This document shows positions 4,178-60,441 of a stretch of DNA of 64,000 nucleotides, piece after piece. The notes beneath the pieces are model-generated. The model was not told the origin of the DNA. It saw only the letters and a list, made by a program, of their open reading frames with translations, and searched no databases. Position numbers and translations under genes: made by a program. Source of the DNA: Hyphomicrobium sp. (lineage in GTDB: Bacteria; Pseudomonadota; Alphaproteobacteria; Rhizobiales; Hyphomicrobiaceae); assembly GCA_031373745.1 (NCBI GenBank), contig JANMNH010000116.1:5728-69727 (forward strand), given 5' to 3'. The number at the start of each line of letters is the position of its first letter. Position 1 is the stretch's first letter.

Positions 4178-4206
4178 CCGCTGAACATAGGGACGAGGAG
4201 ACGGCA

Positions 4207-35491: not shown

Positions 35492-36177
35492 CAGTACGCA
35501 TCCGCGTTGTCGATGTTGAAGTTGTAGAGTTTGCGGGCAGAACCGTAGCGCTTGAATTCGCTTGTCTTGACGCCTTTCATGCCGGCTATTTCCAGAAGCT
35601 TGGTCAGCGCATCATGATGTTCGGGCCGCATTTCTTTCTCAACGCAGTCGGCGCCAAGGCTTTTGACGTTGCCGCGCACGAAGAGTTTGGCCTCATAAAT
35701 GCTGTCGCCGAGCGCGTCGCCGGCGTCCCCCAAAACGACGAGATGGCCCGATTGTGCCATGAAGGCCGACATGTGGCCGATGTTGCCTTTAACGACGATG
35801 TCGATGCCCTTCATCGAGATGCCGCAGCGCGAGGAGGCATTGCCTTCGATGACGAGGAGGCCGCCGCGCCCCGTTGCACCGGCGTATTGGCTGGCGTCGC
35901 CTTTGATAACGACGCGGCCGGACATCATGTTCTCGGCCACGCCGGGTCCGGCTGAGCCGTGGACCGTGACGGACGCCTTCTTGTTCATGCCGGCGCAGTA
36001 ATATCCGACGCTGCCACGCACATCGACATTGATGGGTGCATCCAGTCCGACGGCGACGGCGTGCGCGCCGCGCGGGTTAATGATTTCCCATTTGCCCTCG
36101 TTGGAACGGTCTGTTTGCTTGTGTAAATCGCTGTTCAGTTCGCGAAGAGGTGTGACCGATAAATCGAATGTCCGCAT
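35491..36177 (-). CDS. mgsB: N-methylglutamate synthase subunit B (GXGXG-repeat, GlxC)
   Basis: 'GSVGYYCAGMN', 'GVAENMMSG', 'RCGISMKG', 'GHMSAFMAQSG', 'RKLYNF'. Confidence 0.9.
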   Translation of the reverse strand: MRTFDLSVTPLRELNSDLHKQTDRSNEGKWEIINPRGAHAVAVGLDAPINVDVRGSVGYYCAGMNKKASVTVHGSAGPGVAENMMSGRVVIKGDASQYAGATGRGGLLVIEGNASSRCGISMKGIDIVVKGNIGHMSAFMAQSGHLVVLGDAGDALGDSIYEAKLFVRGNVKSLGADCVEKEMRPEHHDALTKLLEIAGMKGVKTSEFKRYGSARKLYNFNIDNADAY

Positions 36178-36200
36178 GTGAAGTGCCCTGTTGACCCGTC

Positions 36201-37100
36201 TTAGTTCTGCCGTTCCCAGAAGTACACCGTTGAAGGTTCCGGTTCCCAGACCTTGGCTTTATCGATGTTTGGCAGACTTGCGAGCGCCCGGTACTCCGAA
36301 CCGAAGGCCACGTAGTCGTCCGTTTCGGCCATGACGGCCGGTTTGCAGGCGATCGGATCGCGAATGACGCCGAAGCCATTTTTTGTGCCGACGACAAACG
36401 TGAAAAATCCGTCCAGATCGTCGAGGCTTTTTTCCAGCGCTTGTCCGAGATTGAGACCTTGCTTCATGCGCCACGTGAGATAAGCAGCGGCAACTTCGCT
36501 ATCGTTTTCGGTTTCGAACGTCATGCCGTCGCGTTTGAGATCGCGGCGCAGATTGTTGTGGTTGGAAAGCGAGCCGTTGTGCACGAGGCATTGGTCCTTC
36601 CCGGTCGAGAAGGGATGCGCGCCAGCCGTCGTGACCGCGCTTTCGGTCGCCAAGCGGGTGTGGCCGATGCCGTGCGTGCCGGACATTGTTTCGAGCGCGA
36701 AGCGTTTTGCGACGTCGGTCGGCATGCCAACTTCTTTGTAGAGTTCCATGTGTGTGCCGATGCCGACGATGGCAATTTCCGGCGCCACGCGACGTAGCTC
36801 GTCGCGCACATCGCTCTCGGCTGCAGCCGGAATGGAGAGTACGGCGTGTGTGGTGCGCGGCGTGATTGAGACGGGGCCCTTGGCGACACGCTCGAGTCTT
36901 TTGGCAAGTGCTTTGAAGTCGGTTTCTTCAGGCCCGCGCAGCGTGAGCTTGATCGCGTTCTTTGCGCCTTGGCCGTAGATTGCAAAGCCTGCGGAGTCGG
37001 GGCCGCGCTCGCACATGGTGCCAAGCATTTGCGACAACATGCTGCCGAGTTTCGGTTCAAGGGCTTTGTTTTTCAGAAAAAGTCCGACGATACCGCACAT
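36201..37100 (-). CDS. mgsA: N-methylglutamate synthase subunit A (class II glutamine amidotransferase, GlxB)
   Basis: Start 'MCGIVG' (catalytic Cys after Met), 'RGPDSAG', 'GHTRLATES', 'HNGSLSNHN', 'ENDSEV'. Confidence 0.9.
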   Translation of the reverse strand: MCGIVGLFLKNKALEPKLGSMLSQMLGTMCERGPDSAGFAIYGQGAKNAIKLTLRGPEETDFKALAKRLERVAKGPVSITPRTTHAVLSIPAAAESDVRDELRRVAPEIAIVGIGTHMELYKEVGMPTDVAKRFALETMSGTHGIGHTRLATESAVTTAGAHPFSTGKDQCLVHNGSLSNHNNLRRDLKRDGMTFETENDSEVAAAYLTWRMKQGLNLGQALEKSLDDLDGFFTFVVGTKNGFGVIRDPIACKPAVMAETDDYVAFGSEYRALASLPNIDKAKVWEPEPSTVYFWERQN

Positions 37101-37225
37101 AGTGACCTCGCCTAGGGCCGCCAAATTGTGTCAGCAAATTAGGCAACAAGCCTGGCAGTGTCAATTCAAGAGAATATAATATTCCTGGCAAGAAATATGG
37201 TCAGCGTCGCAATTCTGAATGATGT

Positions 37226-37879
37226 TCAGGTGCGCGGATAGATGATGATCGAGAGGTAAGTCATCGGTGTTTTGATCAACTTCTCGGGGCCGTGCGGCGC
37301 GGTGCTGTCGAACAGGATGGCGTCGCCGGGCTTCAGCCGGTAGCTGCGATCGGCATGGCCGTACTCAACTTCGCCAGTCAGCATGTAAATGAATTCGACG
37401 CCATTGTGCTGAAAGGCGGCGTAGGGAACCGCATCCTCGCTGAGCGTAATGAGATATGGCTCAACCACGACATCACCACCCAGTGCGTGTCCAAGCAACT
37501 GATATTGGTGGCCGACTTTTGTGCCGCGGCGGCGGATGACAACACCCTCGCCAGCCTTGACGTAGGAGCAATCGCGCCTCTGCTCGAAAGACGAAAACAG
37601 CATGGCTATCGGCAAATTGAGGGCCGAAGCAAGCGTTTGAAGTGTATTGAGAGAAGGCGAGATCTGACCGTTCTCGATCTTTGACAACATGCCGGGAGAA
37701 ATCTCGGCGGCAACTGCAAGCTCGGCGACAGTCAGGCCGGCATCCTTGCGGCTCTGGCGGACCTGCAAGCCAATAGCCTGTTCCAGCGTACGTTCTGACG
37801 CTCGGGGCGCGCCCGAACCGGTCGTGAGTGTACCGAGGTCGGCCGGTGCTCGAACAGGTTTGATGCGGGTTTCCGCCAT
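37226..37879 (-). CDS. XRE-family HTH + cupin transcriptional regulator
   Basis: 'IGLQVRQSRKDAGLTVAELA...ISPGMLSKIENGQISPSL' plus cupin 'HNGVEFIYMLTGEVEY'; embedded between mgd and mgs genes. Confidence 0.9.
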   Translation of the reverse strand: MAETRIKPVRAPADLGTLTTGSGAPRASERTLEQAIGLQVRQSRKDAGLTVAELAVAAEISPGMLSKIENGQISPSLNTLQTLASALNLPIAMLFSSFEQRRDCSYVKAGEGVVIRRRGTKVGHQYQLLGHALGGDVVVEPYLITLSEDAVPYAAFQHNGVEFIYMLTGEVEYGHADRSYRLKPGDAILFDSTAPHGPEKLIKTPMTYLSIIIYPRT

Positions 37880-38030
37880 ACGGGTGCCTTTGGTGGCCAT
37901 TGTCCGCCATCATAGCCAAGGCCATTGGATCTTTTCAAATTATCTCGTGCGGAATAGATGGCACTTTAGAGCATGATGGTACCGGCTGGTTGAGTTCCAA
38001 TCGGCCGCAATATCGGCATATCCGGCCTTG

Positions 38031-38618
38031 TCAGGAGACGGCTAAACCATGTTCAGCGGCCGCTTCCGTCAGCCAATGCCAGAAGCTGTCTGAATAAGAG
38101 CGCGAACATGCAAGCATGAAGCTATCGGAACCGATAGGCCGCCAGAGAATAACGCCAATGTGGGCCGCGTGGGTGACTGCAACTGCGCCTTCCGGCAAGG
38201 CACGTGGGTGCAAATCGATTGCGAGTCCCTTGGAGAGCGTGTCGCGCGCTTTGGCTCCAGAGACGCGGATGAGGGTTCGCGCGTCTGTCTGGTCGGCAAT
38301 CGAAGCAAGACCCTGAAGTTGCCCAGCGAGTTTGGACGCAGGGTCGTGGCTGTCTTTTGCCGGCGCGATGGCGAGCCACTGATCGGGGGCTATGCCTAAG
38401 AACTCGATGCCGCCGGTGGACGATGCCAATCTAGGGTTTAACGTCAGCGAGACGCCATAGAGCTCATTGACGCGCGCGACGAGTGCAGCCGTTTGCCCTT
38501 TTCGCGCCGCGATCCAGACGACGCTGATTCCATCGAGAACTTTAATTTCTACGTGAGACCGGCTTGCGGACTTTGCCGAGTCGAGAGCGGACCGGGGTTC
38601 GAGTTTTGTATTAGACAC
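38031..38618 (-). CDS. mgdD: N-methylglutamate dehydrogenase gamma subunit (SoxG-like)
   Basis: 'APDQWL', 'DQTDARTLIRVSG..ARDTLSKGLAIDLHP', 'RSYSDSFWHWL'. GTG start at 38618 overlaps the mgdC stop. Confidence 0.82.
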   Translation of the reverse strand: MSNTKLEPRSALDSAKSASRSHVEIKVLDGISVVWIAARKGQTAALVARVNELYGVSLTLNPRLASSTGGIEFLGIAPDQWLAIAPAKDSHDPASKLAGQLQGLASIADQTDARTLIRVSGAKARDTLSKGLAIDLHPRALPEGAVAVTHAAHIGVILWRPIGSDSFMLACSRSYSDSFWHWLTEAAAEHGLAVS

Positions 38619-41595
38619 GGAGACGCACTCCTTCTGTGTCGATGAAACAGGGCGCGACGACTTCGACAAGCGTGTCGCCGCCGCGAACCGGGTCGTAAGC
38701 ACGTATGATTTCGCCGTGACGTTGAGGCCCGTCCTGTAACAGGCCAAGTCCGATCCAATGCCCGGCCATTGGCGAAAAGGCGACCGATGTCAGATAACCG
38801 TGATCGTTCGCTGCCGTGGCGGCGGCATCCTTCTCTAGAAAATGTGCGCCAGCTCTGAGCCGGGCCGCGCGATTGACGGGACGGATACCGACGAGCGATG
38901 GGCGCTTAGAGTCCGCTAGTCCTTCGCGGCCTGCGAGTACGCGGCCGATGTAGTCTTTTTTGGCCGACATCATTTTGCCGAGACCGAGATCGGCTGCCGT
39001 CGTGGTGCCATTAATTTCGTTGCCGCCGACGTGGCCTTTTTCGATGCGCATCACTCCAAGTGCTTCCGTACCGTAAGGAATGGCGCCGTATTCGGCGCCC
39101 GCTTCCATGAGCCGGCGCATGAGCGCGTCGCCGAAGCGTGCCGGAACGCCAATTTCATAGGCAAGTTCGCCGGAGAATGAGAGCCGGTAGAGGCGCGACT
39201 TGATCCCGCTGCAAACCGTGAGTTCGGCAATCGCCATGTAGGGGAATGCTGCATTCGATATGTCGAAAGGCGGGTCCACGATTTTTGCGAGCAAGTCGCG
39301 CGCACGGGGACCGGCCACGGAATATTGCGCCCACTGGTCGGTGGCCGACATCATTTGCGCGTCGAGAGCCGGCCAAAGCCATTGATGGCAGAATTCGAGA
39401 TGTTGCATAACTTTGACGGCGTTAGCCGTTGTCGTGGTCATGAAAAAGCGGTCTGGGGCAAAGCGGGCGCATGTGCCGTCATCCATGACGAGACCATCAT
39501 CGCGCAACATGACTCCATAACGCGCGCGGCCAACGGGGAGCGATGAGAAAGCGTTGATGTAGACGCGGTCGAGTAACGTCGCCGCATCGTTGCCGTGAAC
39601 TTCAATTTTGCCGAGCGTCGAGACGTCGCAAACGCCAACTTTTTCTCGCGTTGTTTTCACCTCGCGATTGACGGTTTCGAGCCAATCGCTCTCGCCGGGA
39701 ACTGGGAAATACTGCGGCCGCAGCCAGAGGCCCGTTTCGACGAAGACCGCGCCTTTTTCTTTGGCCCAGTCATAGGAGGGCGGGAGGCGCGTTGGCTTGA
39801 AATACTTGCCACGGTGGTGCCCTGCGAGCGCGCCCATGGCCACGGGCGTGTAAGGCGGGCGGGCTGAGGTGCTACCTGTTTCAGAGATTGTTTTACCCGT
39901 AATTTCGGCAAGAATGGCAAGGCCAATGACGTTGCCGATTCGTCCTTGGTCGGTCGCCATGCCAAGCGTGGTGTAGCGCTTGACGTGTTCAACCGAGCGA
40001 TAGCCTTCGCGTTCGGCGAGCGCGATGTCGTCAGACGTGACATCATTCTGGAAGTCGATGAAGGCCTTGTGTTTTGCCTCTTTCACGCGCCATAGCGGAA
40101 CAATGTCGTAGCCTGTATCGGCGACCGTTGGGACGTAAGGAACGTCTGCCGGGTAGCCTGTGCTCGTGGCTGCACTTGCGCCCCAGCGGGCGCCCTCTGT
40201 CAGACATCGCGAGAGTGCGAAGCTGCCAGCTGCGGCACCGATGACGGTCATTCCTTTTGGAACGTCGCCGGGCACGAAGGCTGCAAGTGCGTTGTCCCAC
40301 TTTGCTTTGCCGTTGAGGTGCGTCGCGATCTGAACGTTGGGATTGAACCCGCCAGAGACCGCAATGAGATCGCATGGAAGTTCGATGGCCGAGCCGTTGT
40401 AAGGACGAATGCGCGCGCCTGAAACGGCGAGGCGGCCTTGTGCATCCGTTACGACGCCTGATATGAGCCGCGCGCCTGTTGCTTCTGCGATCTTGCGAAC
40501 CGCTGCACTGGGATCAGGCCGTGCATCGACGATAGCGGCAACCCGGGCACCGGCGGCGTGAAGATCAATCGCTGTTCGTGCGCCGTCGTCGTTAGTGGTG
40601 AAGACGACTGCATTTCGTCCAGGGGTGACGCCGAAGCGGTTGATATAGATTCTGACTGCACTCGCGAGCATGACACCCGGCAAATCGTTGTTGCCGAATA
40701 CGATGGGCCGTTCGGTGGCGCCGGTCGCGACGATGGTGCGTTGGGCGACAATGCGCCAAAGACGTTGGCGCGGCGTGTGAGGCGCTGGTTTTGGGACATG
40801 ATCGGCGACGCGTTCGATAGCGCTGAACGTGCCGCTGTCATAGGCGCCGGTGAGCGTTGTGCGCAGAAGAACGCGAACCTCGGGTAGAGTGCGCAATTCG
40901 GCTGCGGTTTGACGGACCCAGTCAAGCCCAGAGAGGCCATCCAGCTTTACCTCGTCGCCGAGGAGCCGCCCGCCTAATGCGAAGTTCTCGTCTACCAGGA
41001 TTACGCGCGCGCCGGAGCGGCCTGCGGCAAGGGCTGCGCTTAATCCTGCGGGGCCGGCGCCGATAATGAGAACGTCGCAAAAGGCAGAACATTTTTCATA
41101 GGTGTCGGGATCGGCGGCTTCAGCGGCGCGCCCCAAGCCAGCGGCGCGGCGGATGAGGGGCTCGTACAGCTTTTCCCAGAAGGAAGCCGGCCACATGAAG
41201 GTCTTGTAGTAAAATCCTGCGACAAATACGGGCGATAAGAGCCCGTTGATCGACAAGAGGTCGTATTTGAGTGACGGCCAGCGGTTTTGGCTTTGCGCTT
41301 CGAGGCCTTGATAGAGTTCGATCATCGTCGCCCGAGTGTTGGGTTCCCGGTGTGCGCCTGAGCGGAGTTCAACGAGCGCATTCGGTTCTTCCGAGCCCGC
41401 AGAAAGGATGCCGCGCGGGCGGTGATATTTAAAGGAGCGCCCCGTGAGCGTTACGCCGTTGGCAAGAAGTGCGGAGGCGAGTGTGTCGCCTTCGAAGCCG
41501 TGATAGGTTTCGCCGTCAAAGGTGAAACGAAGCGGCGCGCGGCGATCAATAAGGCCTTTGTTTGCGATGCGGTTTGGTTGGTTTGGAGTCGCCAT
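38611..41595 (-). CDS. mgdC: N-methylglutamate dehydrogenase alpha subunit (SoxA-like)
   Basis: 'GDTLASALLANG..GRSFKYHRPRG', 'KAFIDFQNDVT', 'HVKRYTTLGMATDQG', 'DVSTLGKI', 'LRIEKG'-like motif; 994 aa. Confidence 0.9.
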   Translation of the reverse strand: MATPNQPNRIANKGLIDRRAPLRFTFDGETYHGFEGDTLASALLANGVTLTGRSFKYHRPRGILSAGSEEPNALVELRSGAHREPNTRATMIELYQGLEAQSQNRWPSLKYDLLSINGLLSPVFVAGFYYKTFMWPASFWEKLYEPLIRRAAGLGRAAEAADPDTYEKCSAFCDVLIIGAGPAGLSAALAAGRSGARVILVDENFALGGRLLGDEVKLDGLSGLDWVRQTAAELRTLPEVRVLLRTTLTGAYDSGTFSAIERVADHVPKPAPHTPRQRLWRIVAQRTIVATGATERPIVFGNNDLPGVMLASAVRIYINRFGVTPGRNAVVFTTNDDGARTAIDLHAAGARVAAIVDARPDPSAAVRKIAEATGARLISGVVTDAQGRLAVSGARIRPYNGSAIELPCDLIAVSGGFNPNVQIATHLNGKAKWDNALAAFVPGDVPKGMTVIGAAAGSFALSRCLTEGARWGASAATSTGYPADVPYVPTVADTGYDIVPLWRVKEAKHKAFIDFQNDVTSDDIALAEREGYRSVEHVKRYTTLGMATDQGRIGNVIGLAILAEITGKTISETGSTSARPPYTPVAMGALAGHHRGKYFKPTRLPPSYDWAKEKGAVFVETGLWLRPQYFPVPGESDWLETVNREVKTTREKVGVCDVSTLGKIEVHGNDAATLLDRVYINAFSSLPVGRARYGVMLRDDGLVMDDGTCARFAPDRFFMTTTTANAVKVMQHLEFCHQWLWPALDAQMMSATDQWAQYSVAGPRARDLLAKIVDPPFDISNAAFPYMAIAELTVCSGIKSRLYRLSFSGELAYEIGVPARFGDALMRRLMEAGAEYGAIPYGTEALGVMRIEKGHVGGNEINGTTTAADLGLGKMMSAKKDYIGRVLAGREGLADSKRPSLVGIRPVNRAARLRAGAHFLEKDAAATAANDHGYLTSVAFSPMAGHWIGLGLLQDGPQRHGEIIRAYDPVRGGDTLVEVVAPCFIDTEGVRLRV

Positions 41596-41891
41596 TATAC
41601 TCCTCCCGTGGAGGCCTTAGCGCGAGCGAGGGCGACGTTTTTGGCGAGCGTTACTGAGGCAATCTCGTGACTGCGCGTGTCACGTGAAACGACGAGCCAA
41701 GCGTGGCATCCAGCGCTGTGATACCAGAGTTCTTTATGCGCTCCCGCGACGTTGGCGCGTTCGTAGCCGTAGGTGTAGAAAGCGGCAGCAGCATCCGGTG
41801 CGGCGGGATCTGGGCGTGTCAGGCTCGCGTCGCCTTGAATGACGAATTCGTCGAGGCTTCGTTCGCCGCAGAATGGACAGTTGATGCGCAT
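41595..41891 (-). CDS. mgdB: N-methylglutamate dehydrogenase delta subunit (SoxD-like)
   Basis: 'INCPFCGERSLDEF', 'ELWYHSAGCHAWLVVSRDTRSHEI' Zn-ligand motifs. Confidence 0.9.
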   Translation of the reverse strand: MRINCPFCGERSLDEFVIQGDASLTRPDPAAPDAAAAFYTYGYERANVAGAHKELWYHSAGCHAWLVVSRDTRSHEIASVTLAKNVALARAKASTGGV

Positions 41892-41904
41892 GGAAATGAG
41901 CCTC

Positions 41905-43164
41905 TCAGTGCAAGTTCGGCTGGTTGCCCATGCCTTTTTCGTCAATCATGTGTCCGGTGCGGAAGCGGTCGAGACGGTAGGCGCGTCCAACCTCGTGCGG
42001 TTCGTCGCGGGCGATCAGATGCGCGAAGCAGAGGCCTGATGCGGGCGTTGCCTTGAACCCGCCGTAACACCAGCCGGCATTGAGATAGAGGCCATCGATC
42101 TGGGTCTTGTCGATGATAGGCGAGCCATCCATGCTCATGTCCATGATGCCGCCCCAGGAGCGGAGAAGCCTCACACGCCCGATGCGCGGCATCAGGGCCA
42201 TTCCGCCTTCAAGCACATCTTCCACAACGGGGAGATTGCCGCGCTGGGCATAGGAATTGTAGCCGTCAATGTCGCCGCCGAAGACGAGCCCGCCTTTGTC
42301 GGATTGACTGACGTAGAAGTGTCCGGCGCCGAACGTGACGACTCCGTCGATGAAGGGTTTGATGCCTTCCGAGACAAAAGCTTGAAGCACGTGGCTCTCG
42401 ATCGGAAGTTTAAGGCCTGCCATGGAGGCGACGCGCGATGAGTTGCCGGCACAGGCGAGGCCGATTTTCTTGGCCAATATAGACCCGCGCGTCGTTTCGA
42501 CGCCAGTTGCGCGGCCATTCTCGATTTTGAAGCCGGTAACTTCCGCATTCTCGATGATATCGACGCCAAGCCGGTCGGCGGCGCGTGCATAGCCCCAGGC
42601 GACCGCATCATGGCGGACGGTGCCACCGCGCTTTTGCAACAAGCCGCCTTGGATCGGGAAGCGCGCGTCATCGTAGTTGAACCAGGGATACATGTCGCGC
42701 ACGGCGTCGCGGTCGAGGAGTTCGGAATTGACGCCGTGCAGGCGCATGGCGTTGCCGCGCCGCGCATACGCATCGCGCTGGGTGTCGGAATGATAAAGAT
42801 TGAGTACGCCGCGCTGGGAGACCATGGCATTGTAGTTGAGGTCTTGTTCCAAGCCTTCCCACAACTTCATGCTCGCTTCGTAGAAAGGGATGTTGCCGGG
42901 CAGCAGATAATTGGAGCGCACGATCGTGGTGTTGCGACCGACGTTGCCGGAGCCGATCCAGCCCTTTTCGACAACGGCGACGTTAGTGACGCCATAGCGC
43001 TTGGCGAGGTAGTAGGCAGTTGCCAAACCATGTCCGCCGCCGCCGACGATAATGGCGTCATAAGAGGGCTTTGGGGCAGCCGCACGCCATGCGGGCTTCC
43101 AGGTTTTGTGGCCTGTGAGGCTTTCGCGCAGAACGCTCCAAAGCGAGTAGTGGTCAGTTGCCAT
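41905..43164 (-). CDS. mgdA: N-methylglutamate dehydrogenase beta subunit (SoxB-like flavoprotein)
   Basis: 'IVGGGGHGLATAYYLA', 'GNVGRNTTIVRSNY', 'WCYGGFKATP', 'IDEKG'. Confidence 0.9.
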   Translation of the reverse strand: MATDHYSLWSVLRESLTGHKTWKPAWRAAAPKPSYDAIIVGGGGHGLATAYYLAKRYGVTNVAVVEKGWIGSGNVGRNTTIVRSNYLLPGNIPFYEASMKLWEGLEQDLNYNAMVSQRGVLNLYHSDTQRDAYARRGNAMRLHGVNSELLDRDAVRDMYPWFNYDDARFPIQGGLLQKRGGTVRHDAVAWGYARAADRLGVDIIENAEVTGFKIENGRATGVETTRGSILAKKIGLACAGNSSRVASMAGLKLPIESHVLQAFVSEGIKPFIDGVVTFGAGHFYVSQSDKGGLVFGGDIDGYNSYAQRGNLPVVEDVLEGGMALMPRIGRVRLLRSWGGIMDMSMDGSPIIDKTQIDGLYLNAGWCYGGFKATPASGLCFAHLIARDEPHEVGRAYRLDRFRTGHMIDEKGMGNQPNLH

Positions 43165-46356: not shown

Positions 46357-47757
46357 TCATACGCTCAGAAGCAAATGTTCGCGTTCCCACGGACTGATAA
46401 CCCGCATGAACTCCTCGAACTCGGAGCGCTTCAATTGCAGATAAAGATGCGCGAAGCGGGGTCCCAGAATGTTATGCAGCGCCTTGCTTTCTTCAAAGTC
46501 GGTCAGCGCTTCGAGAAGTCCGCGCGGCAGTTGATGCGAATTGCGATAGGCGTTTCCGACAACGGCTGGACGCGGCTCCAACTTGTTTTTCATGCCGAGA
46601 TACCCGCACGCAAGACTGGCCGCGATGGCCAGGTATGGATTTGAATCCGAGCCCGGCAACCGGTTTTCAACGCGGCGCGCAGTCTCCGGCGAGATCGGCA
46701 CCCGCAATCCGCAAGAACGATTGTCGTTGCCCCACTCGACGTTAATCGGTGCCGCCCCGTTGGGGACCAAGCGGCGGTAAGAGTTTACATACGGGGCAAG
46801 CAGACACATGGCGGCGGGCAGAAACTGCTGTTGACCGGCAAGAAACTGGTAGAACAGCGCCGTTGGCTGGCCGTCTGCATCCGAAAAAACATTCTTTCCC
46901 GTTTTGGCATCGACGATACTTTGGTGAATATGCATCGCACTGCCCGGCTCGTTTTCCAGGGGCTTGGCCATAAACGTGGCGTAGCAGCCGTGCGTGAATG
47001 CGGCTTCGCGGATGGTGCGCTTGAAAAAGAACACCTGATCGGCAAGGTCAATCGGATCGCCGTGCAGTAGATTGATTTCGAGCTGCGCCGCGCCGCCCTC
47101 CTGAATAATGGTATCGATTTTTAGATACTGGCGCTCGGCGAAATCATAAATGTCATCAACTATCTTATCGTATTCATCGACAGCGCCGAGGCTGTATGAC
47201 TGCCGGCCGGCGCCTTTGCGGCCCGAGCGGCCTGTTGGTGGTTCCAAGGGGTAATCGGGATCGGGGTTGGTCTTGGTTAGATAGAATTCGAGTTCTGGCG
47301 CAACGACCGGTACCCAGCCTTCCTTATGGTACAAAGCGACAATTCTTTTCAGCACGTTGCGCGGTGCGATTTCGACGGGCTCGCCATTCTGCCAAGTGGC
47401 ATCATGAATGACCTGGGCCGTTGGGCTTGAGGCCCACGGCGCCGGGCGGATCGTACCAAGATCTGGGACCATCATCAGGTCGCTCTCGGCATAGAGTGCC
47501 TGGCCATCGTCTTCAAAACCGACGTAATCTCCGGTAATTGTCTGGTGGAAGATGGAAATCGGCAGGTGCACTGCATCAAGTTTCACGAACTTTTCGGCCG
47601 GCATAGTCTTGCCGCGGGCCACACCAGCAATGTCAGGTACGGCGCAATCGATCTCTTCGATGCGGTGCTGCCGGAGCCAATCGCGTAATCCTTCGGGGGT
47701 TGAGCCCGCGCCATAGGCTTCGGCATCCACAGGCGGGGCTCCGGTATCGGCTGTCAT
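46357..47757 (-). CDS. Gamma-glutamyl-polyamine synthetase (PuuA/PauA-type GS-family ligase)
   Basis: 'PDIAGVARGKTMP', 'VVAPELEFYL', 'HEGG'-like 'IQEGGAAQLEINL', 'GSAMHIHQS', 'RVENRLPGSDSNPY'; divergent from a pot operon. Start placed at ATG 47757. Confidence 0.85.
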   Translation of the reverse strand: MTADTGAPPVDAEAYGAGSTPEGLRDWLRQHRIEEIDCAVPDIAGVARGKTMPAEKFVKLDAVHLPISIFHQTITGDYVGFEDDGQALYAESDLMMVPDLGTIRPAPWASSPTAQVIHDATWQNGEPVEIAPRNVLKRIVALYHKEGWVPVVAPELEFYLTKTNPDPDYPLEPPTGRSGRKGAGRQSYSLGAVDEYDKIVDDIYDFAERQYLKIDTIIQEGGAAQLEINLLHGDPIDLADQVFFFKRTIREAAFTHGCYATFMAKPLENEPGSAMHIHQSIVDAKTGKNVFSDADGQPTALFYQFLAGQQQFLPAAMCLLAPYVNSYRRLVPNGAAPINVEWGNDNRSCGLRVPISPETARRVENRLPGSDSNPYLAIAASLACGYLGMKNKLEPRPAVVGNAYRNSHQLPRGLLEALTDFEESKALHNILGPRFAHLYLQLKRSEFEEFMRVISPWEREHLLLSV

Positions 47758-48012
47758 GGTTTGCACCTGGTAATTTGCTTGAAACGGCCTACTCAGCATC
47801 CACATCGGGGAGCGGGTGCTGGATATTCGGCCAATCAATAATAACGATAGTATCTTGTACCCCGGAGAATTTGTGATCACAATGGAACGGTTAGGCAACA
47901 GTGCATGGCCCTTTCCGTTAAGGTCACTGAAGGCTCGCGATACGGCCCACGAACATGCGGGTGAAGCGCATTGGAGCGGGATAGTTAAGCATCTCCAAGG
48001 AGGTTAGAACCA

Positions 48013-55211: not shown

Positions 55212-56336
55212 ATGCGGATCGGCGTTCCAACGGAGATTAAAAGCAACGAGTTCCGCGTCGGGCTCGTTCCAGGTTCGGTGCGCGAACTGGCGGCGCGCGG
55301 CCACGAAGTCCTCGTCCAGTCGGGCGCCGGTGCCGGCATTTCGGCAGACGATGCAACTTATGAGAAGGCCGGCGCGCGGATTGTTCCCGACGCAGCCGCC
55401 GTGTTTCGCGACGCCGAGATGATCGTCAAGGTCAAGGAACCGCAAAAGAGCGAATACACGCGGCTCGGCTCGGATCAGATCCTGTTTACCTACCTGCATT
55501 TGGCCCCCGATCCCGAACAGGCGCGCGGCCTCATGGCGTCCGGTTGCGCGGCGATTGCTTACGAGACGGTGACCGATGCGAGCGGCGGACTGCCCTTGTT
55601 GGCCCCAATGAGCGAAGTGGCCGGGCGCTTGTCGATTGAAGCGGCTGCAATGGGCCTTCGCCGGCCCACGGGCGGACGTGGCGTATTGATGGGCGGCGTT
55701 CCAGGCGTCCGGCCTGCGAAAGTTGTCATTCTTGGTGGCGGCGTGGTTGGCACGCATGCGGCGCGCATGGCAGTTGGACTTGGCGCCGACGTTACAATTC
55801 TTGATCGCTCGCTGCCGCGTCTGCGTCAGTTGGACGAATTGTTCGAAGGCCGGGTCAAAACACTGGCCTCGACGATGGATAGCGTCGAAACGGAAGTGCT
55901 TGGTGCTGACGCGGTGATTGGTGCCGTGCTGGTCGCCGGAGCAAGCGCACCGAAGCTCGTCACGCGGGCCATGTTGAAAGAAATGAAACGCGGCGCAGTG
56001 CTGGTTGACGTGTCGATCGATCAGGGCGGGTGTTTTGAGACATCGCGGCCAACGACCCATGCCGAGCCGACGTTTGAAGTTGACGGTATCATTCACTATT
56101 GCGTCGCTAACATGCCGGGCGCCGTTCCGGTGACAAGTGCGCAAGCGTTGAACAACGCAACGCTGCCGTTTGTGATCAAGCTCGCGGAGCGCGGACTAGC
56201 GGCGTTTGATCGCGACCCGCATCTTGCTGCGGGACTAAACGTCAAAAGTGGACGCATCATGCATGCGTCGGTTGCGTCGTCGCTTGGTTTCGACAGTCTG
56301 GATGGTTCGCGCTCCTTTCGCGTCGCGGCAGAGTAA
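55212..56336 (+). CDS. ald: Alanine dehydrogenase
   Basis: 'GVPTEIKSNEFRVGL', 'FTYLHLA', 'LLAPMSEVAGR', 'DVSIDQGGCFETS', 'HYCVANMPGAVP'. Confidence 0.95.
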   Translation: MRIGVPTEIKSNEFRVGLVPGSVRELAARGHEVLVQSGAGAGISADDATYEKAGARIVPDAAAVFRDAEMIVKVKEPQKSEYTRLGSDQILFTYLHLAPDPEQARGLMASGCAAIAYETVTDASGGLPLLAPMSEVAGRLSIEAAAMGLRRPTGGRGVLMGGVPGVRPAKVVILGGGVVGTHAARMAVGLGADVTILDRSLPRLRQLDELFEGRVKTLASTMDSVETEVLGADAVIGAVLVAGASAPKLVTRAMLKEMKRGAVLVDVSIDQGGCFETSRPTTHAEPTFEVDGIIHYCVANMPGAVPVTSAQALNNATLPFVIKLAERGLAAFDRDPHLAAGLNVKSGRIMHASVASSLGFDSLDGSRSFRVAAE

Positions 56337-56576
56337 GGTCAAATAGAACCCCCGTGCCGCCGGCCAACACGCGCCCGGCACTCGCAGAAGCGCCGGGTTG
56401 CAGGAAATTGCGGTCCGGCGTTTCGCTTTTCGAGTGCTTTGGAAACTTGTCCAGCGGTGTGAGTTGTATCTATGTGCGCCACAAGTCAATTGGCGCGCGA
56501 AGCCGGAGCCGGGCGCCGATCGGCGCTCCGCCTCTGACATTTCTGATGTTTTTGGAATTGAAATCCGTACGCTGGA

Positions 56577-56840
56577 TTAGCTACGGCTTGTCTTCCCGCC
56601 CTTGGCGACGCAAGCGGACTTCGACATCATCTTGACGCCCTGGCCTTTGCACGCGTTCTGGCCCTTGCAGCCATTTCCAGTAGACTTGCAGCTGCCTGTA
56701 CCCTTGCAAGCGTTCAGGCCGAAACATTTCACCTTATAGTCGGCTGCGTGGCCCGTTGTGGGTGCCGTGATCGAACCGGCGAGCATCATCGTGGCAGCGG
56801 CGGCGGCGAGTGTAGCGCCTGATGTTTTGGTTAGTTTCAT
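56577..56840 (-). CDS. Secreted Cys-rich peptide, BufA2 (bufferin type II precursor)-like
   Basis: 87 aa with strong SD (AGGAGG), signal peptide, six Cys in 'KCFGLNACKGTGSCKSTGNGCKGQNACKGQG...SAC..KGG'. Confidence 0.8.
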   Translation of the reverse strand: MKLTKTSGATLAAAAATMMLAGSITAPTTGHAADYKVKCFGLNACKGTGSCKSTGNGCKGQNACKGQGVKMMSKSACVAKGGKTSRS

Positions 56841-56928
56841 TGTCTTCCTCCTGATGTCGGCAATGGCATGCCGTGATTTAGGCGAACCCTGCTGATCGGC
56901 TCACTCAATGAGAGTTCAGCATCAGGGG

Positions 56929-56958
56929 AGGTACGCTAGCTGTTGGTGTAAAGTTTCA
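56929..56958 (-). promoter_or_regulatory. ECF-sigma-type promoter of the BufA2-like gene
   Basis: Minus strand TGAAAC-tttacaccaacagctag-CGTACCT (AAC...CGT with 17-nt spacer); near-copy at 58837-58866. Confidence 0.7.
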
Positions 56959-57007
56959 TATTTTCTTTATCGTGCCGGGGAATCTTGATGCTTGATCGAA
57001 ATATCAC

Positions 57008-58807
57008 TCAACGCCCGGAATTTGCGCTACGGCGCACAACCCTGTTAACGGTACCGGCCAGCTCCGCGGGATCAAACACTGGCAGCGAGCAAATGCGGTC
57101 GGTGCAGGCGAAGGCTGCGGGTTCATCCAATTCAGGATACTGCACATCGGGATTTGAGAGGGCGCCTTCGCGCTTGTCCCACCAGTCAATGCGCCGGTAA
57201 TGAGCGGGGTAGGCGAGTGCTGCAGCATGGAGAGCCGCCGATTTCGGGTCGTCTTTGTGCCCGACAATAGTTATGTGCGTCGGCTCTCGAGCAAGTTCTG
57301 CATCGATCAACAGTGCGCCCGAATGCACGCTTGGCCTCTCAAGGTGATTTTCAGAAAGGGCAAAGCGGGCGGCGTGTCCGGCAAGTTCAAAGTCGTTTTT
57401 GTCGCCGGTATAGCGATGCAGGAGATTAGAAAAGCGCGCGGTTTGGATTTGTTCTTCGAGTATTTTGGCGGGACTTGCAAACACGCCGATGTTTGCCTCC
57501 GATTGAACGGACGTCAAAAGCCCTCCGGAGGGATCTTGGAGTTTGCTTGTAATGAAATCACCTGCTTCACTAGCGACGCGCATCCATTTTCTATCGCCGG
57601 TCGCAGCATAGAGTTCGAGCGCTGCTTGCCCCATTGAAAGCGTATCGCCGAGAAACGGTCCGCCGCGATCGGCATCTCCATGAGTGTAGCCGCCTCCTTC
57701 GAGCCACCGGTTCTTCACGATCCATTCTGCGGCATTTTTCGCCGCGTCGAGAGCTGCCGTGTCGCCCGTTACTGCAAAATGTGCAGCAAGGCTGCGGATC
57801 GCCCAGCCGTTCTCACGGGTATAAATGTGTTGATCGATCTTAGGTTTTTTCGGGAGGGCGTTTCGCGCGGCTTGAGATAATGCGTAGTAGGCTTTGCCTG
57901 GCATTGTCTCATCAACATCGGCATCTTGGCTAGTGAAGAACGCTCCATTTGGAGCTCGAAGAACGTCCATAAGATACTTCTTGATTGTTGCCGCCGCCTC
58001 AAGAAATCGCGGATCGCGCCATTGGGCGTAGGCTTCCGAAAACTGCCGCAAACCATTTGCCTGGTACCACATAATCTTTTCGTAGTGCGGCGACTTCCAG
58101 TCCGCCGCGTCGGAATACTGGTAGAGCCCGCCCTCAACCGTATCGATGAGGTTGAGTGCGGCGGCGAATGTTTTTTGGGCCCTTGCTGCGGCTTCTTTAT
58201 CACCATTTGCCGCGAGCGAGAATTCCCAGTCCATGCGGTCGGCATCGATAAATTTATGTACCGTGCCCCAGCCGCCAAACTCAGTGTCGAAGGCATCGAT
58301 CGTGTTTGCGGCGAGTTCGGTTCGGCTCGCGGTCAAAAGCAAATGGGACTTTGCCGGTTCGGCAGGAGGCTCGACGACGACCGAGGGGCCCGGCGTCGGG
58401 TCGGCAATGACGGCCTCAAGGAGTGCTGTCATCGCTTTGGGCTCGATGTATCCGGCGCGCTTGACGATTTCGGTGCCGTCAGGCGCAAAAATGATTGTCG
58501 CAGGCCAGCCCCAATCGCCGTACCGGTTCGACAGATCGGGGTTAGCGTCCTGATCGACGCGAACGGTTATAAATTTGGATTTGAGGAGATAAGCGACGTC
58601 CGGATCTCGATAGGTCGTTTTTTCCATGACGTGGCACCAATGGCACCAGACGGCCTCGAGATCCAGAATGACGAGCCGGTTCTCGGCCTTCGCTTTCGCG
58701 AAAAGGTCTACAGACCAAGGTTGCCAATTTAGTTCTGCCCTGGCGCGCGGTATGGGCATCAAGACGAGACAGAATAGACTAAACGCCAGAATGCGCTTCA
58801 ACCACAT
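57008..58807 (-). CDS. Secreted thioredoxin-domain protein (DUF255/YyaL/SPATA20-like: thioredoxin + alpha/alpha toroid)
   Basis: Signal peptide ending 'ARA-E'; 'WCHWCHVM' CxxC, 'VDQDANPDLSNRY..GWPATI', 'GGLYQYS', 'HYEKIMWYQA', 'FFTSQDAD'. Start placed at ATG 58807 because the ORF-track start overlaps the -10 element. Confidence 0.8.
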   Translation of the reverse strand: MWLKRILAFSLFCLVLMPIPRARAELNWQPWSVDLFAKAKAENRLVILDLEAVWCHWCHVMEKTTYRDPDVAYLLKSKFITVRVDQDANPDLSNRYGDWGWPATIIFAPDGTEIVKRAGYIEPKAMTALLEAVIADPTPGPSVVVEPPAEPAKSHLLLTASRTELAANTIDAFDTEFGGWGTVHKFIDADRMDWEFSLAANGDKEAAARAQKTFAAALNLIDTVEGGLYQYSDAADWKSPHYEKIMWYQANGLRQFSEAYAQWRDPRFLEAAATIKKYLMDVLRAPNGAFFTSQDADVDETMPGKAYYALSQAARNALPKKPKIDQHIYTRENGWAIRSLAAHFAVTGDTAALDAAKNAAEWIVKNRWLEGGGYTHGDADRGGPFLGDTLSMGQAALELYAATGDRKWMRVASEAGDFITSKLQDPSGGLLTSVQSEANIGVFASPAKILEEQIQTARFSNLLHRYTGDKNDFELAGHAARFALSENHLERPSVHSGALLIDAELAREPTHITIVGHKDDPKSAALHAAALAYPAHYRRIDWWDKREGALSNPDVQYPELDEPAAFACTDRICSLPVFDPAELAGTVNRVVRRSANSGR

Positions 58808-58836: not shown

Positions 58837-58866
58837 AGGTACGCACACGTCCGGCGTAGAGTTTCA
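58837..58866 (-). promoter_or_regulatory. ECF-sigma-type promoter of the thioredoxin/YyaL-like gene
   Basis: Minus strand TGAAAC-tctacgccggacgtgtg-CGTACCT; same -35, spacer length and -10 as 56929-56958. Confidence 0.7.
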
Positions 58867-58935: not shown

Positions 58936-60441
58936 CTATTTCAGGGTTGGAAAGTTGAATTCCGCGCCCTTGCGAATTCCGGTTGGCCAGCGTGCTGTGA
59001 TGGTTTTGATACGCGTGTAAAAGCGCACGCCTTCTGGGCCATAAATCGCGTGATCTCCAAACAACGAGCGCTTCCAGCCGCCGAAGGAGTGGTACGCCAC
59101 AGGCACGGGAAGCGGCACGTTGATGCCGACCATGCCAACTTGGATCTTGTCCGCAAAAGCGCGGGCCGCGTCTCCGTCGCGCGTGAAAATTGCGGTGCCG
59201 TTGCCATATTCGTGGCTATTGATGAGATGAGCGGCTTCGTCATAGCTCCCGGTGCGCACTATTGAAAGAACAGGCCCGAAAATTTCTTCCTTGTAGATTG
59301 TCATGTCTTTTGTGACGCGATCGAACAGCGAACCGCCGAGGAAGTAACCATTCTCATACCCCTGCAATTTAAAGCCGCGGCCATCGACGACAAGATCTGC
59401 ACCTTCGTCGACGCCGAGATCGATTAAACCCGAAATGCGCCGCTTGGCTTCTGCTGTCACCACGGGCCCCATCTCGGAATCGGGGTCGGTCGCTGGGCCA
59501 ACGCGAAGCGCGCGTACTTTCGGCGCCAAGGCTTCGACCAGCCGGTTGGCAGTTTTTTCGCCAACGGGTACGGCGACGGAAATCGCCATGCAGCGTTCGC
59601 CTGCAGAACCGTATCCAGCGCCCATGAGGGCATCGACTGCCTGATCCATATCGGCATCTGGCATAACGATCATGTGGTTCTTGGCGCCGCCTAAAGCTTG
59701 CACGCGTTTTCCGGCGGTTGAGCCGCGCCGGTAGACGTATTCGGCAATTGGCGTCGAGCCGACGAAGCTGACAGCTGCGATATCGGGGTGATCTAGGATG
59801 GCATCGACGGCAATTTTGTCTCCATGCACCACGTTGAGAACGCCGTCCGGGAACCCCGCTTCCTGAAATAATTCCCAGGCCAGCATGACTGCGGACGGAT
59901 CGCGCTCCGAAGGCTTCAAGATGAACGTGTTTCCGCAAGCAACGGCGACCGGATACATCCACATTGGCACCATGGCTGGGAAATTGAATGGCGTGATGCC
60001 GGCCACGACGCCCAATGGCTGGCGATCAGACCAGCTATCGATATCGGGGCCGACGTTGCGGCTAAATTCACCCTTCAAAAGATGTGGGATGCCGCACGCA
60101 AAATCGACAACGTCGATGCCGCGCTGGAGTTCACCAAGAGCGTCCGCGTGGGTTTTGCCATGTTCCTTTGAAATGGCCCGCGCGATGTCATTAGCATGGC
60201 GCTCAAGGAGTTCTTTGAATTTGAACATCGGCTTGACGCGTTTCATGGGCGTCGTCGTGCCCCATTCAACGGACGCTTGTTTGGCAGCAGCGACGGCAGC
60301 GTTGACTTCAGCGACCTCCGAGAGCGGGAGAACGGCCGACTTTTCGCCTGTTGCGGGATTGAAAACGGACGCCGTGCGCGTTGAGGCCGACGTGACCTTG
60401 CGGCCGCCGATTCCGTTTTGGATGGTCTCGAGTGACTGCAT
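58936..60441 (-). CDS. mmsA: CoA-acylating (methyl)malonate-semialdehyde dehydrogenase
   Basis: 'GITPFNFPAMVPMW', 'KPSERDPS', 'GGAKNHMIVMPDAD', 'GSAGERCMA', 'GINVPLPVPVAYHSFGGWK'. Confidence 0.92.
   Translation of the reverse strand: MQSLETIQNGIGGRKVTSASTRTASVFNPATGEKSAVLPLSEVAEVNAAVAAAKQASVEWGTTTPMKRVKPMFKFKELLERHANDIARAISKEHGKTHADALGELQRGIDVVDFACGIPHLLKGEFSRNVGPDIDSWSDRQPLGVVAGITPFNFPAMVPMWMYPVAVACGNTFILKPSERDPSAVMLAWELFQEAGFPDGVLNVVHGDKIAVDAILDHPDIAAVSFVGSTPIAEYVYRRGSTAGKRVQALGGAKNHMIVMPDADMDQAVDALMGAGYGSAGERCMAISVAVPVGEKTANRLVEALAPKVRALRVGPATDPDSEMGPVVTAEAKRRISGLIDLGVDEGADLVVDGRGFKLQGYENGYFLGGSLFDRVTKDMTIYKEEIFGPVLSIVRTGSYDEAAHLINSHEYGNGTAIFTRDGDAARAFADKIQVGMVGINVPLPVPVAYHSFGGWKRSLFGDHAIYGPEGVRFYTRIKTITARWPTGIRKGAEFNFPTLK

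Follow-up and report, generated by a model that had tools for sequence, protein, structure and literature searches.

Does a bufferin precursor that is paired with a secreted DUF255 protein, and has no maturase gene nearby, belong to a self-contained system, or is it an outlying part of a larger one? Bufferins, described in 2024, are a very widespread copper-defence family of RiPPs, and to our knowledge their clusters are currently said to comprise only precursor, MNIO, DUF2063 and DoxX. The DUF255/YyaL/SPATA20 proteins form a large family that extends from bacteria to humans and includes members of solved structure, none of which, as far as we know, has an assigned biochemical function. The two families meet in a locus of Hyphomicrobium sp. 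(Table 1), which we analysed within its window, that is, the whole 64-kb stretch of DNA under study, and alongside the corresponding loci of relatives, designated here by L numbers. A preliminary description had read the locus as a distinct module in which the DUF255 protein stands "instead of a DUF692 maturase" (MNIO) and serves an "MNIO-independent peptide". The sequencing runs that contain the locus are exclusively complex freshwater-sediment metagenomes, with no RNA run among them.

Table 1. Genes and putative regulatory elements of the locus (positions in the window).
Feature	Position	Strand	Length	Remarks
ald	55212-56336	+		flank, convergent with the peptide gene
GC-rich palindrome GCGCCGATCGGCGC	56513-56526			between the convergent peptide and ald genes; read from the sequence
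bufA2-family bufferin precursor gene	56577-56840	-	87 aa	ORF and RBS; NF050166
Putative ECF-type promoter motif GAAAC-N17-CGTA	56932-56957	-		92 nt upstream of the peptide ATG; pattern search
Secreted DUF255 (YyaL/SPATA20-like) gene	57008-58807	-	599 aa	PF03190; AlphaFold2; 7TKV match
Second putative ECF-type promoter motif GAAAC-N17-CGTA(CC)	58840-58865	-		33 nt upstream of the DUF255 ATG; pattern search
Aldehyde dehydrogenase gene, mmsA type	58936-60441	-		flank of the DUF255 gene

The precursor peptide and its secreted neighbour

The peptide gene carries an AGGAGG ribosome-binding site (RBS) 6 nt 5′ of its ATG and encodes a precursor made up of a Sec signal peptide, some 32 residues long, and a 55-residue core with six Cys. 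By inspection, its N-terminus is of the Sec type (MKLTKTSGATLAAAAATMMLAGSITAPTTGHA/AD, the slash marking the cleavage site), with a predicted n-region MKLTK, hydrophobic core ATLAAAAATMMLAG and cleavage motif GHA/AD. The Cys lie at positions 39, 45, 51, 58, 64 and 77; of these, the middle four fall within xCK(G/S) repeats. The NCBIfam model NF050166 (Cu_RiPP_BufA2) matches the peptide over its full length with 83.7 bits against a cutoff of 60, residues 8-84 aligning with profile positions 1-78 of 79; this score, the six-Cys pattern and the predicted Sec signal peptide together make it a BufA2 precursor, as the preliminary label "BufA2-like" had proposed. Pfam returned no match to the peptide, and a DUF2282/BufA1 identity was accordingly rejected.

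Homologues of the window peptide number 105. Among 28 homologues, C39, C45, C51, C64 and C77 are invariant, while C58 occurs in 90% or more, one sequence having a deletion at this site. Purifying selection on the peptide is strong, dN/dS being about 0.02 in comparison with L011 and L012 at a saturated dS (>1). Its BufA2-model score falls within the range of 82.9-91.6 bits obtained for peptides encoded immediately next to a BufB maturase, and judged by sequence the window peptide does not depart from MNIO-linked BufA2. An AlphaFold2 prediction from the 28 homologues reached a pLDDT of 51, too poor for comparing folds, and an NJ tree calculated from the short cores is indicative only, its deep nodes having been left out of use.

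The neighbouring protein consists of a predicted signal peptide (MWLKRILAFSLFCLVLMPIPRARA/E, by inspection), a thioredoxin domain with WCHWCH, an (alpha/alpha)6 toroid and a conserved C-terminal CxxxxC. The mechanical ORF list extended its reading frame to a GTG at 58846; the ATG at 58807 is favoured as the start because the putative promoter motif overlaps the GTG. PF03190 (Thioredox_DsbH/DUF255) matches the 599-aa protein at 6.4e-25 (88.4 bits, cutoff 27), the residues C55, H56, W57, C58, H59, V60 and M61 are invariant in DUF255 alignment A1, and the AlphaFold2 model (pLDDT 88.5) contains the toroid, so that PF03190 with its CHWCH motif and the C-terminal toroid, the marks of the DUF255/YyaL/SPATA20 family, are both present. 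The secreted thioredoxin-toroid partner of the preliminary description is thereby borne out. Its gene evolves at a dN/dS of about 0.05, again with saturated dS.

The best PDB match, by Foldseek over the full length (TM 0.72) and as the top match of hmmsearch, is 7TKV, the uncharacterised Thioredox_DsbH protein Bab1_2064 of Brucella abortus, followed in Foldseek by cellobiose/glucose 2-epimerases and GH76 as structural matches of the toroid; GH127/GH88 matches over the toroid are weak. With YyaL, SPATA20 (SSP411) and Bab1_2064 the window protein shares the N-terminal thioredoxin domain with CHWCHVM, the C-terminal (alpha/alpha)6 toroid and the C-terminal Cys pair, but unlike them it has a signal peptide and a genomic link to bufferin clusters, and it is only 22% identical to Bab1_2064 and about 70 residues shorter (599 versus 668 aa). 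It also resembles the reducing pathways fed by DsbD, CcdA or ScsB (DsbC, DsbG, ScsC and Chlamydia DsbH) as a secreted thioredoxin-fold protein with a CxxC, and the Scs system in particular through the copper-stress context of bufferin-linked DUF255. In contrast to these pathways, it possesses a large toroid and scores far below the DsbH (NF043050, 16.8 bits, cutoff 190) and DsbD (PRK00293, 37 against a cutoff of 330) models, the DsbH identity being rejected, and neither a CcdA nor a DsbD gene lies within the 64-kb window.

Putative promoters and the surrounding window

The peptide and DUF255 genes are separated by 167 nt, and each has its own copy of the motif GAAAC-N17-CGTA. Both copies also occur in L011, L012, L001 and L091; the one at the peptide gene is kept at equal distance in these four loci and in L004, an orphan peptide gene, and the six Cys, the RBS and the motif of the peptide gene are preserved together in several genomes and contexts. 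Upstream of DUF255, the motif was found in 12 of 78 species loci, compared with 10 of 1600 random 200-nt segments. We infer that the motif functions as a promoter of ECF-sigma type. Both window copies read differently from the GTAACC-N16-CGAA site of the SigF/NrsF (ECF16) regulon (PMC3511200), to which the buf operons of Caulobacter belong, and no TAAC-N16-18-CGAA was present upstream of the DUF255, bufA2 or MNIO genes of 20 MNIO-containing cluster loci. Scans of the region for Sigma-70 promoters and intrinsic terminators gave nothing above shuffled expectation. The palindrome between the convergent genes, which the terminator scan missed because it has no T-run, is partly conserved in L011 and L012 and is possibly a bidirectional terminator.

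The flanking genes are an ald and an mmsA-type aldehyde dehydrogenase gene, just as the preliminary description had them, and its statement that the window is devoid of MNIO, DUF2063 and DoxX genes likewise holds. HMMs trained on some 20 MNIO and DUF2063 sequences from bufferin loci were run in six frames against every stop-to-stop ORF of at least 35 aa and gave no match to either at E≤10 in the 64 kb; phmmer found none for DoxX, DsbD_TM or Trx within the same window, and a Pfam scan of 40 large ORFs revealed no MNIO, DUF2063 or DoxX. The window therefore does not contain a standard bufferin cluster, with an adjacent MNIO and with DUF2063, with or without DoxX.

The pairing in other genomes

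Is the pair a peculiarity of this locus? Within a few kb of the DUF255 gene, a BufA2-like gene is present in 23-27 of the 80 species that carry the secreted DUF255 family, spread over Alpha- and Gammaproteobacteria, Acidobacteriota, Verrucomicrobiota and Planctomycetota; gene order varies across five phyla. Of 50 DUF255 loci with complete flanks, each from a different species, 17 have a BufA2-like gene no more than 5 kb away, far more than chance would produce. In 16-20 of the 23-27 species, MNIO and DUF2063 belong to the same cluster (for metagenome loci, MNIO served as the cluster marker and DUF2063 was taken from Pfam or gene calls), often with DoxX and sometimes with a CcdA-like gene. DUF255 can also lie inside the cluster, as in bufA2-MNIO-DUF2063-DoxX-DUF255. 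Culturable bacteria with the complete cluster include Bradyrhizobium valentinum, B. altum and Methylobacterium sp. C25.

Several of these clusters are informative in their arrangement. In Bradyrhizobium L171, DsbD_TM, DoxX, DUF255, bufA2, bufA2, MNIO_BufB and HvfC_N follow one another on one strand; in Bradyrhizobium clusters the CcdA-like DsbD_TM gene lies two genes upstream of DUF255, and DoxX directly adjoins DUF255 there as well as in those of Beijerinckiaceae and Verrucomicrobiota. A Trx and DsbD_TM pair adjoins BufA2 in L010, L023 and L097. L174 reads ECF sigma, RskA-type anti-sigma, DUF255 (61% identical to that of the window), bufA2, bufA2, MNIO and DUF2063, with GAAAC-N16/17-CGTA upstream of the sigma gene, of DUF255 and of the first peptide gene of the buf operon; its second bufA2, whose core shares 71% identity with that of the window peptide, immediately precedes MNIO-DUF2063. 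In L032, from Hyphomicrobium, DUF2063-DoxX is found about 8 kb from an ECF sigma, anti-sigma, BufA2 and DUF255 series, and split clusters therefore exist in the Hyphomicrobium group.

The MNIO-less DUF255-bufA2 pair occurs in four independent genomic contexts (the window with L011 and L012, L001, L091, and L172), whose DUF255 proteins are 55-83% identical and form a coherent clade in the DUF255 tree. L011 and L012 come from the MAGs CAWFWU01 and JANOKW01, respectively. Neither MNIO nor DUF2063 was found within 10 kb on either side of the pair in L011 and L001, on the 16.5-kb contig of L172 or in 16.6 kb of the 19.9-kb contig of L091. In about two thirds of the DUF255 loci BufA2 is missing from the vicinity, and L004 and L009 contain peptides of the window's clade but lack DUF255; a strict one-to-one relation of enzyme and substrate is therefore not required. 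The promoter motif is retained in five DUF255 loci that lack BufA2 (L014, L019, L020, L066 and L173).

Possible roles of the DUF255 protein

The preliminary reading, a self-contained two-gene periplasmic metal- or thiol-stress module in which DUF255 sets the Cys redox state of an MNIO-independent peptide or modifies it otherwise, draws on the four unrelated contexts and coherent clade of the MNIO-less pair, on the purifying selection that the peptide experiences in this configuration, on the motif common to both genes, and on a conserved polar pocket of invariant residues in the toroid, which suggests a specific ligand or catalysis; persistence of the pair despite the divergence of its DUF255 proteins would also fit. 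Considering that MNIO and DUF2063 are included in most DUF255-BufA2 neighbourhoods, that a same-clade peptide is part of the MNIO-DUF2063 operon of L174, that the window peptide scores like those abutting BufB, and that all 864 complete genomes found to encode a Buf2 precursor have an MNIO gene as well (PMC12452194), DUF255 looks like an accessory of bufferin-2 systems and not a maturase substitute; members of the peptide clade without DUF255 also speak against the self-contained module, which we regard as quite improbable. What survives of the preliminary interpretation is thus the peptide, its partner, the local absence of MNIO and the conserved pairing, while the replacement of DUF692 and the independence from MNIO find no support.

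Alternatively, the two genes may share nothing beyond one ECF envelope-stress regulon, DUF255 being a general disulfide reductase or repair enzyme, or a glycan-acting enzyme, with substrates other than the bufferin. Copper stress does create a need for periplasmic disulfide repair, as met by E. coli DsbC and by Scs systems, and the separate putative promoters, the intergenic gap, the many DUF255 loci without BufA2, five of them with the motif, and a toroid resembling sugar epimerases and GH76 are all consistent with such a role. An adjacency that recurs in five phyla, in varied orders and at positions inside the cluster would however be hard to maintain without a functional tie to the bufferin system itself, which leaves this explanation unlikely, if worth serious attention; it overlaps the one we favour in that DUF255 takes part in the same stress response in both. 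To a third explanation, that the pair is a decaying remnant of a cluster that lost MNIO and DUF2063 and that the peptide is functionless, we give next to no credence: the two genes are indeed missing locally and present in the clusters of relatives, but the low dN/dS of both peptide and DUF255 at saturated dS, on which decay or a pseudogene was rejected, and the conservation of Cys, RBS and motif across genomes and contexts all oppose it.

We lean, with some caution, towards the locus being a two-gene satellite of a Buf2 copper/envelope-stress system. Maturation of the peptide would then most likely fall, in trans, to an MNIO whose gene lies at another site of the genome, and DUF255 would most likely serve as a redox accessory in the periplasm. 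In relatives, bufA2, DUF255, BufB and BufC make up one cluster, often with DoxX and sometimes with a CcdA-like carrier and an ECF sigma/anti-sigma pair; this cluster would have been split in the Hyphomicrobium-like lineage to which the window belongs. Because each gene has its own putative ECF-sigma-type promoter, the two could be switched on together without an obligate operon. In the cytoplasm, a BufB/BufC pair from another locus would convert the four central Cys into 5-thiooxazoles, whereupon Sec would export the precursor, with cleavage after GHA. In the periplasm, DUF255 may act as a thiol-disulfide oxidoreductase, most likely a reductase, sparing the thiooxazole thiols (or the Cys of the peptide) unwanted disulfides under copper or oxidative stress, with its toroid possibly binding the substrate. 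Recognition of bufferin precursors involves the core peptide, and a -20 Da form of Buf2 has been attributed to an extra labile S-S bond between modified residues (PMC11626156).

This satellite reading can be set against two described cases. Like the buf2 system of Caulobacter vibrioides (bufA2-bufB2-bufC2; Buf_6/12Cys, PMC11626156), the window locus encodes a Sec signal, six Cys and central CK(G) repeats that pass the BufA2 equivalog model, and it is predicted to share its periplasmic location, stress induction and ECF sigma control; unlike buf2, it has DUF255 as its neighbour, MNIO (BufB) and DUF2063 (BufC) both being absent from the 64 kb. Stand-alone Buf2 precursors are common, and those unlinked to an MNIO would, as the authors of the MNIO landscape study suggest, be either modified by an MNIO at another locus or unmodified; that study included genes only where the intergenic gap did not exceed 10 bp (PMC12452194). 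The window precursor resembles them in its lack of genetic linkage to MNIO and differs in its conserved DUF255 neighbour, co-regulated as judged by the motif, since no conserved partner is reported there; "DUF255", "PF03190" and "thioredoxin" are absent from the text and from parts of the supplements of that study.

The link between DUF255 and bufferins appears to be unreported. In a broader form, which we advance tentatively and hold to be slightly short of probable, secreted DUF255 would be an unrecognised fifth component of bufferin-2 systems, a dedicated periplasmic redox partner that is probably fed by CcdA or DoxX and keeps the sulfurs of the thiooxazoles or Cys in the exported metallophore active, and in the Hyphomicrobium-like clade DUF255 and an extra precursor copy would form a free-standing, ECF-controlled module. 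A stronger version would have the clade peptide work without any MNIO modification. If true, a further conserved component would extend bufferin biology by a step that follows export and takes place in the periplasm, and it would suggest a way for thiol-bearing thiooxazoles to remain functional where the surroundings are oxidising and loaded with copper. The conserved pairing also supplies the functional handle on secreted YyaL-like proteins that the preliminary description had anticipated, making the function of the DUF255/YyaL/SPATA20 family directly testable through a defined partner gene, a regulon and a possible substrate. Stand-alone bufferin precursors, finally, may not be random orphans, and can instead be parts of a dispersed regulon joined by a putative ECF promoter.

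The pair and its surroundings in the window

The peptide gene encodes a strongly constrained precursor of the BufA2 family, the Cys-rich, copper-binding precursors of bufferin 2 (Buf2). Its product, MKLTKTSGATLAAAAATMMLAGSITAPTTGHAADYKVKCFGLNACKGTGSCKSTGNGCKGQNACKGQGVKMMSKSACVAKGGKTSRS, belongs to an already known family, with a full-length match of 83.7 bits (cutoff 60) to NCBIfam model NF050166 ("BufA2 family periplasmic bufferin-type metallophore"). Nothing significant was found in Pfam, in agreement with the published remark that family databases lacked a BufA2 profile at the time of its first description (PMC11626156). The protein collection holds 105 homologues, and in an alignment of 28 peptide sequences five of the six cysteines are invariant, the remaining one being present in at least 90%.

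The adjacent gene encodes a secreted thioredoxin-toroid protein. Its signal peptide, assigned by eye like that of the precursor, reads MWLKRILAFSLFCLVLMPIPRARA followed by E; Pfam places in the product a PF03190 (DUF255, Thioredox_DsbH) thioredoxin domain with WCHWCH, as well as weak matches to (alpha/alpha)6 glycosidase-like families. AlphaFold2 gives a confident model (pLDDT 88.5), and both structure and sequence have their top PDB match in 7TKV (Bab1_2064 of Brucella abortus, an uncharacterised Thioredox_DsbH protein), followed by cellobiose/glucose 2-epimerases and GH76 enzymes, which match the toroid part only. The fold is already solved, and we know of no biochemical function assigned to the family. 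A second, C-terminal Cys pair, FAC-x4-CS-x-P (residues 568-576), is invariant in all 20 sequences of an alignment of secreted DUF255 homologues and is aligned to a C-x4-C in 7TKV; it could be a second redox-active pair or a structural disulfide.

Compared with two syntenic MAGs, L011 (uncultured alphaproteobacterium) and L012 (Hyphomicrobium sp.), dN/dS is ~0.02 for the peptide gene and ~0.05 for the DUF255 gene, with synonymous sites saturated in both cases; a decaying remnant is ruled out by these selection data. The DUF255 protein changes markedly faster than its neighbourhood in the same comparison, at 80-83% identity against 92-95% for both the peptide and the flanking metabolic enzymes. 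Six-frame HMM and phmmer searches, together with Pfam on 40 large ORFs, found no MNIO (DUF692, the BufB maturase), DUF2063 (BufC) or DoxX (BufD) gene in the 64-kb window, so that the arrangement given in the preliminary description, a BufA2-like precursor beside a secreted DUF255 protein between ald and mmsA with none of these partners, is confirmed in every particular.

Elsewhere in the window, a block resembling the N-methylglutamate pathway of methylamine use (32775-43164, minus strand) fits a Hyphomicrobium-like methylotroph. Genes for type I secretion and acylation stand together, and the annotated large ORFs include no obvious RTX substrate for them. An 860-aa DUF2793 protein lies within a sugar-nucleotide/glycosyltransferase region, at the sole 2-kb bin of negative GC skew in the first 48 kb (GC 0.625).

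Features of the window and of homologous loci, with coordinates along each sequence
Sequence	Position	Strand	Feature	Remarks
Window	56577-56840	-	bufA2-family gene	87 residues; AGGAGG ribosome-binding site in front
Window	57008-58807	-	DUF255 gene	599 residues; upstream of peptide gene, 167-nt gap
Window			ald; mmsA-type aldehyde dehydrogenase	flanking genes of the pair
Window	92 nt upstream of peptide ATG		GAAAC-N17-CGTA	putative promoter; equal spacing
Window	33 nt upstream of DUF255 ATG		GAAAC-N17-CGTA	putative promoter; equal spacing
Window	977-4938	+	circularly permuted ATP-grasp, Alpha-E, transglutaminase-like, proteasome-type subunit genes in series	correspond to a conserved four-gene set
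Window	6396-10244	-	HlyD-family membrane-fusion protein, ABC exporter, HlyC-type RTX-toxin acyltransferase	consecutive
Window	21596-24178	+	860-aa protein	DUF2793 N-terminal, SO2946-like domain C-terminal
Window	32775-34082	-	glutamine-synthetase-like gene	methylamine block
Window	34154-37124	-	Glu_synthase / GXGXG / GATase genes	methylamine block
Window	38031-43164	-	sarcosine-oxidase-like SoxG, alpha (994 aa), DAO subunits	methylamine block
Window	46357-47898		second glutamine-synthetase-like gene
L010	8349-9481		thioredoxin + DsbD_TM pair	beside BufA2
L023	15171-16431		thioredoxin + DsbD_TM pair	beside BufA2
L097	295-1506		thioredoxin + DsbD_TM pair	beside BufA2
L032	9493-9878	+	small secreted protein, ~128 aa	between BufA2 and DUF255; translation read from sequence
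L171	11549-12331		creatininase-family (PF02633) gene	directly downstream of DUF255/bufferin block
L173	9810-10538		creatininase-family (PF02633) gene	directly downstream of DUF255/bufferin block

Neighbourhoods of DUF255 and BufA2 in other genomes

The DUF255 and BufA2 families are conserved neighbours, mostly inside complete Buf2 clusters. When the 20-homologue DUF255 alignment was used to scan one genome per species, and each of the resulting 80 loci (40-83% identical) was searched in six frames with HMMs for BufA2, MNIO and DUF2063, a BufA2-like gene was found in 23-27 of them, depending on threshold, and farther than 5 kb from DUF255 in one only. Of the loci that extend 5 kb or more to either side, 17/50 (34%) have such a gene within 5 kb; since Buf2 precursors occur in ~2% of complete genomes, with at most four copies each (PMC12452194), chance adjacency would be far below 1%, and the pairing proposed from the window is indeed conserved elsewhere. 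The association extends, with varying gene orders, to Bradyrhizobium, Methylobacterium, Beijerinckiaceae, Nevskia, Rudaea, Acidobacteriota, Verrucomicrobiota and Tepidisphaerae, and is scattered across most clades of the DUF255 tree. From the bufferin side, DUF255 lies beside a BufA2-like gene in 1/80 metagenome loci (L091, the closest to the window at 67% identity); thus, a third of secreted DUF255 genes adjoin a bufferin, whereas few bufferin loci have a DUF255.

The preliminary description had DUF255 standing "instead of a DUF692 maturase", a reading that this comparison does not support: 16-20 of the 23-27 pairs share their cluster with MNIO and DUF2063, and there DUF255 accompanies the maturase. 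Three arrangements recur. A Bradyrhizobium locus, L171, carries on a single strand DsbD_TM(CcdA-like) - DoxX - DUF255 - bufA2 - bufA2 - MNIO - HvfC_N, its peptides reaching 83 and 90 bits with the BufA2 model and its MNIO 387 bits with NF050167 ("MNIO family bufferin maturase"). The orders bufA2-like - MNIO - DUF2063 - DoxX - DUF255 and DUF255 - bufA2-like - MNIO - DUF2063 - DoxX were found in Verrucomicrobiota and Acidobacteriota, respectively, with peptides that score under the BufA2 cutoff and are therefore termed BufA2-like Cys-Lys repeat peptides. The most telling relative is L174 (ECF sigma - RskA-type anti-sigma - DUF255 - bufA2 - bufA2 - MNIO - DUF2063), whose DUF255 is 61% identical to that of the window and whose second peptide is 71% identical in the core; a peptide of the type found in the window thus shares an operon with an MNIO maturase.

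The form lacking an adjacent MNIO is a feature of a lineage. In the DUF255 tree, the window, L011, L012, L001, L172, L091 and L032 make up a Hyphomicrobium-like clade, all members of which have BufA2, and not MNIO, adjacent. Such pairs occur in four unrelated genomic contexts: the window with L011 and L012, sharing ald/mmsA flanks; L001 and L002; L091; and L172, with two peptides in tandem. Peptides of the same clade, in a weakly resolved peptide tree, also occur without any partner (L004, L009) or beside a thioredoxin + DsbD_TM pair (L010). In the Hyphomicrobium locus L032, a DUF2063-DoxX pair lies ~8 kb upstream of the block ECF sigma - zf-HC2 anti-sigma - BufA2 - small secreted protein - DUF255, so split clusters do occur in this group; the MNIO presumably sits just past the locus edge. 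The small secreted protein has no family match.

Two further gene types were seen at these loci. A small secreted thioredoxin and a DsbD_TM (CcdA-like) membrane protein recur beside BufA2, with or without MNIO, and give Buf2 loci another thiol-redox accessory, distinct from DUF255. The creatininase-family gene in L171 and L173, which otherwise differ, may be a coincidence.

A putative promoter shared by both genes

Alignment of the intergenic regions showed a conserved stretch ahead of the peptide gene, a putative ECF-type promoter GAAAC-N17-CGTA. On conservation and context, both window genes appear to have this common promoter type; GAAAC-N15-18-CGTA has four matches in the window, two of them inside coding regions. 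The motif precedes both genes at the window's distances in L011, L012, L001 and L091, and likewise the orphan peptide of L004. It was found upstream of DUF255 in 12/78 species loci, all Hyphomicrobiales-like, versus 10/1600 random 200-nt segments. In L174 it stands in front of the sigma gene, of DUF255 and, in the bufA2-MNIO-DUF2063 operon, of the first peptide, which ties it to the L174 sigma factor and puts DUF255 in one regulon with the bufferin operon; ECF sigma genes also adjoin DUF255 or BufA2 in five other loci (L019, L022, L023, L032, L091). The motif is unlike GTAACC-N16-CGAA, the SigF site behind the Caulobacter buf operons (PMC3511200), and unlike the related S. meliloti RpoE7 sites, and is closer in look to RpoE2-type GGAAC/GAAAC-N16-17-CGTT sites (PMC6180224). 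Its retention in the window implies a sigma factor encoded elsewhere in the genome, and it is plausible that the remainder of the system is elsewhere too.

Proposed role of the DUF255 protein

We propose that a BufB/BufC pair from elsewhere in the genome would modify the precursor in the cytoplasm, and that after export through Sec it would be met in the periplasm by DUF255, which may act on the peptide or on the same chemistry. Modification by a distant pair is suggested by recognition of the precursor through its core and not its signal peptide (PMC11626156), by the window core, which is typical of the family, and by the commonness of stand-alone precursors, together with the count of complete genomes that have a Buf2 precursor and no MNIO (0/864; PMC12452194). 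This count, the cluster statistics and the L174 operon all speak against the MNIO-independent module of the preliminary description, which we consider improbable even though the pair without a local MNIO truly persists throughout its clade. The main alternative, that DUF255 and the bufferin are merely co-regulated without direct interaction, seems to us a serious contender, if still an unlikely one.

For a DUF255 that acts on the peptide, a reductase role agrees with three observations: CcdA-like and DoxX genes lie beside DUF255, and thioredoxin + DsbD_TM pairs beside other BufA2 genes; a -20 Da congener of Buf2 has been ascribed to an additional labile S-S bond joining modified residues (PMC11626156); and a related thiooxazole peptide is aggregation-prone, for which its authors hypothesize free thiols forming disulfides (PMC13097082). 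Full-text literature searches for bufferins together with thioredoxin, or for DUF255 in connection with copper and the periplasm, found nothing, nor is DUF255, PF03190 or thioredoxin mentioned in the bufferin and MNIO papers or in the accessible parts of the landscape study's supplements. That study let unrelated genes into a cluster only at distances of up to 10 bp from a core gene (PMC12452194), and DUF255, at 100-400 bp, would have been left out. Stand-alone Buf2 precursors have already been described, and the DUF255-BufA2 locus is a variation on a known system rather than a new system type; as far as the accessible sources extend, the link between DUF255 and Buf2 itself appears to be new.
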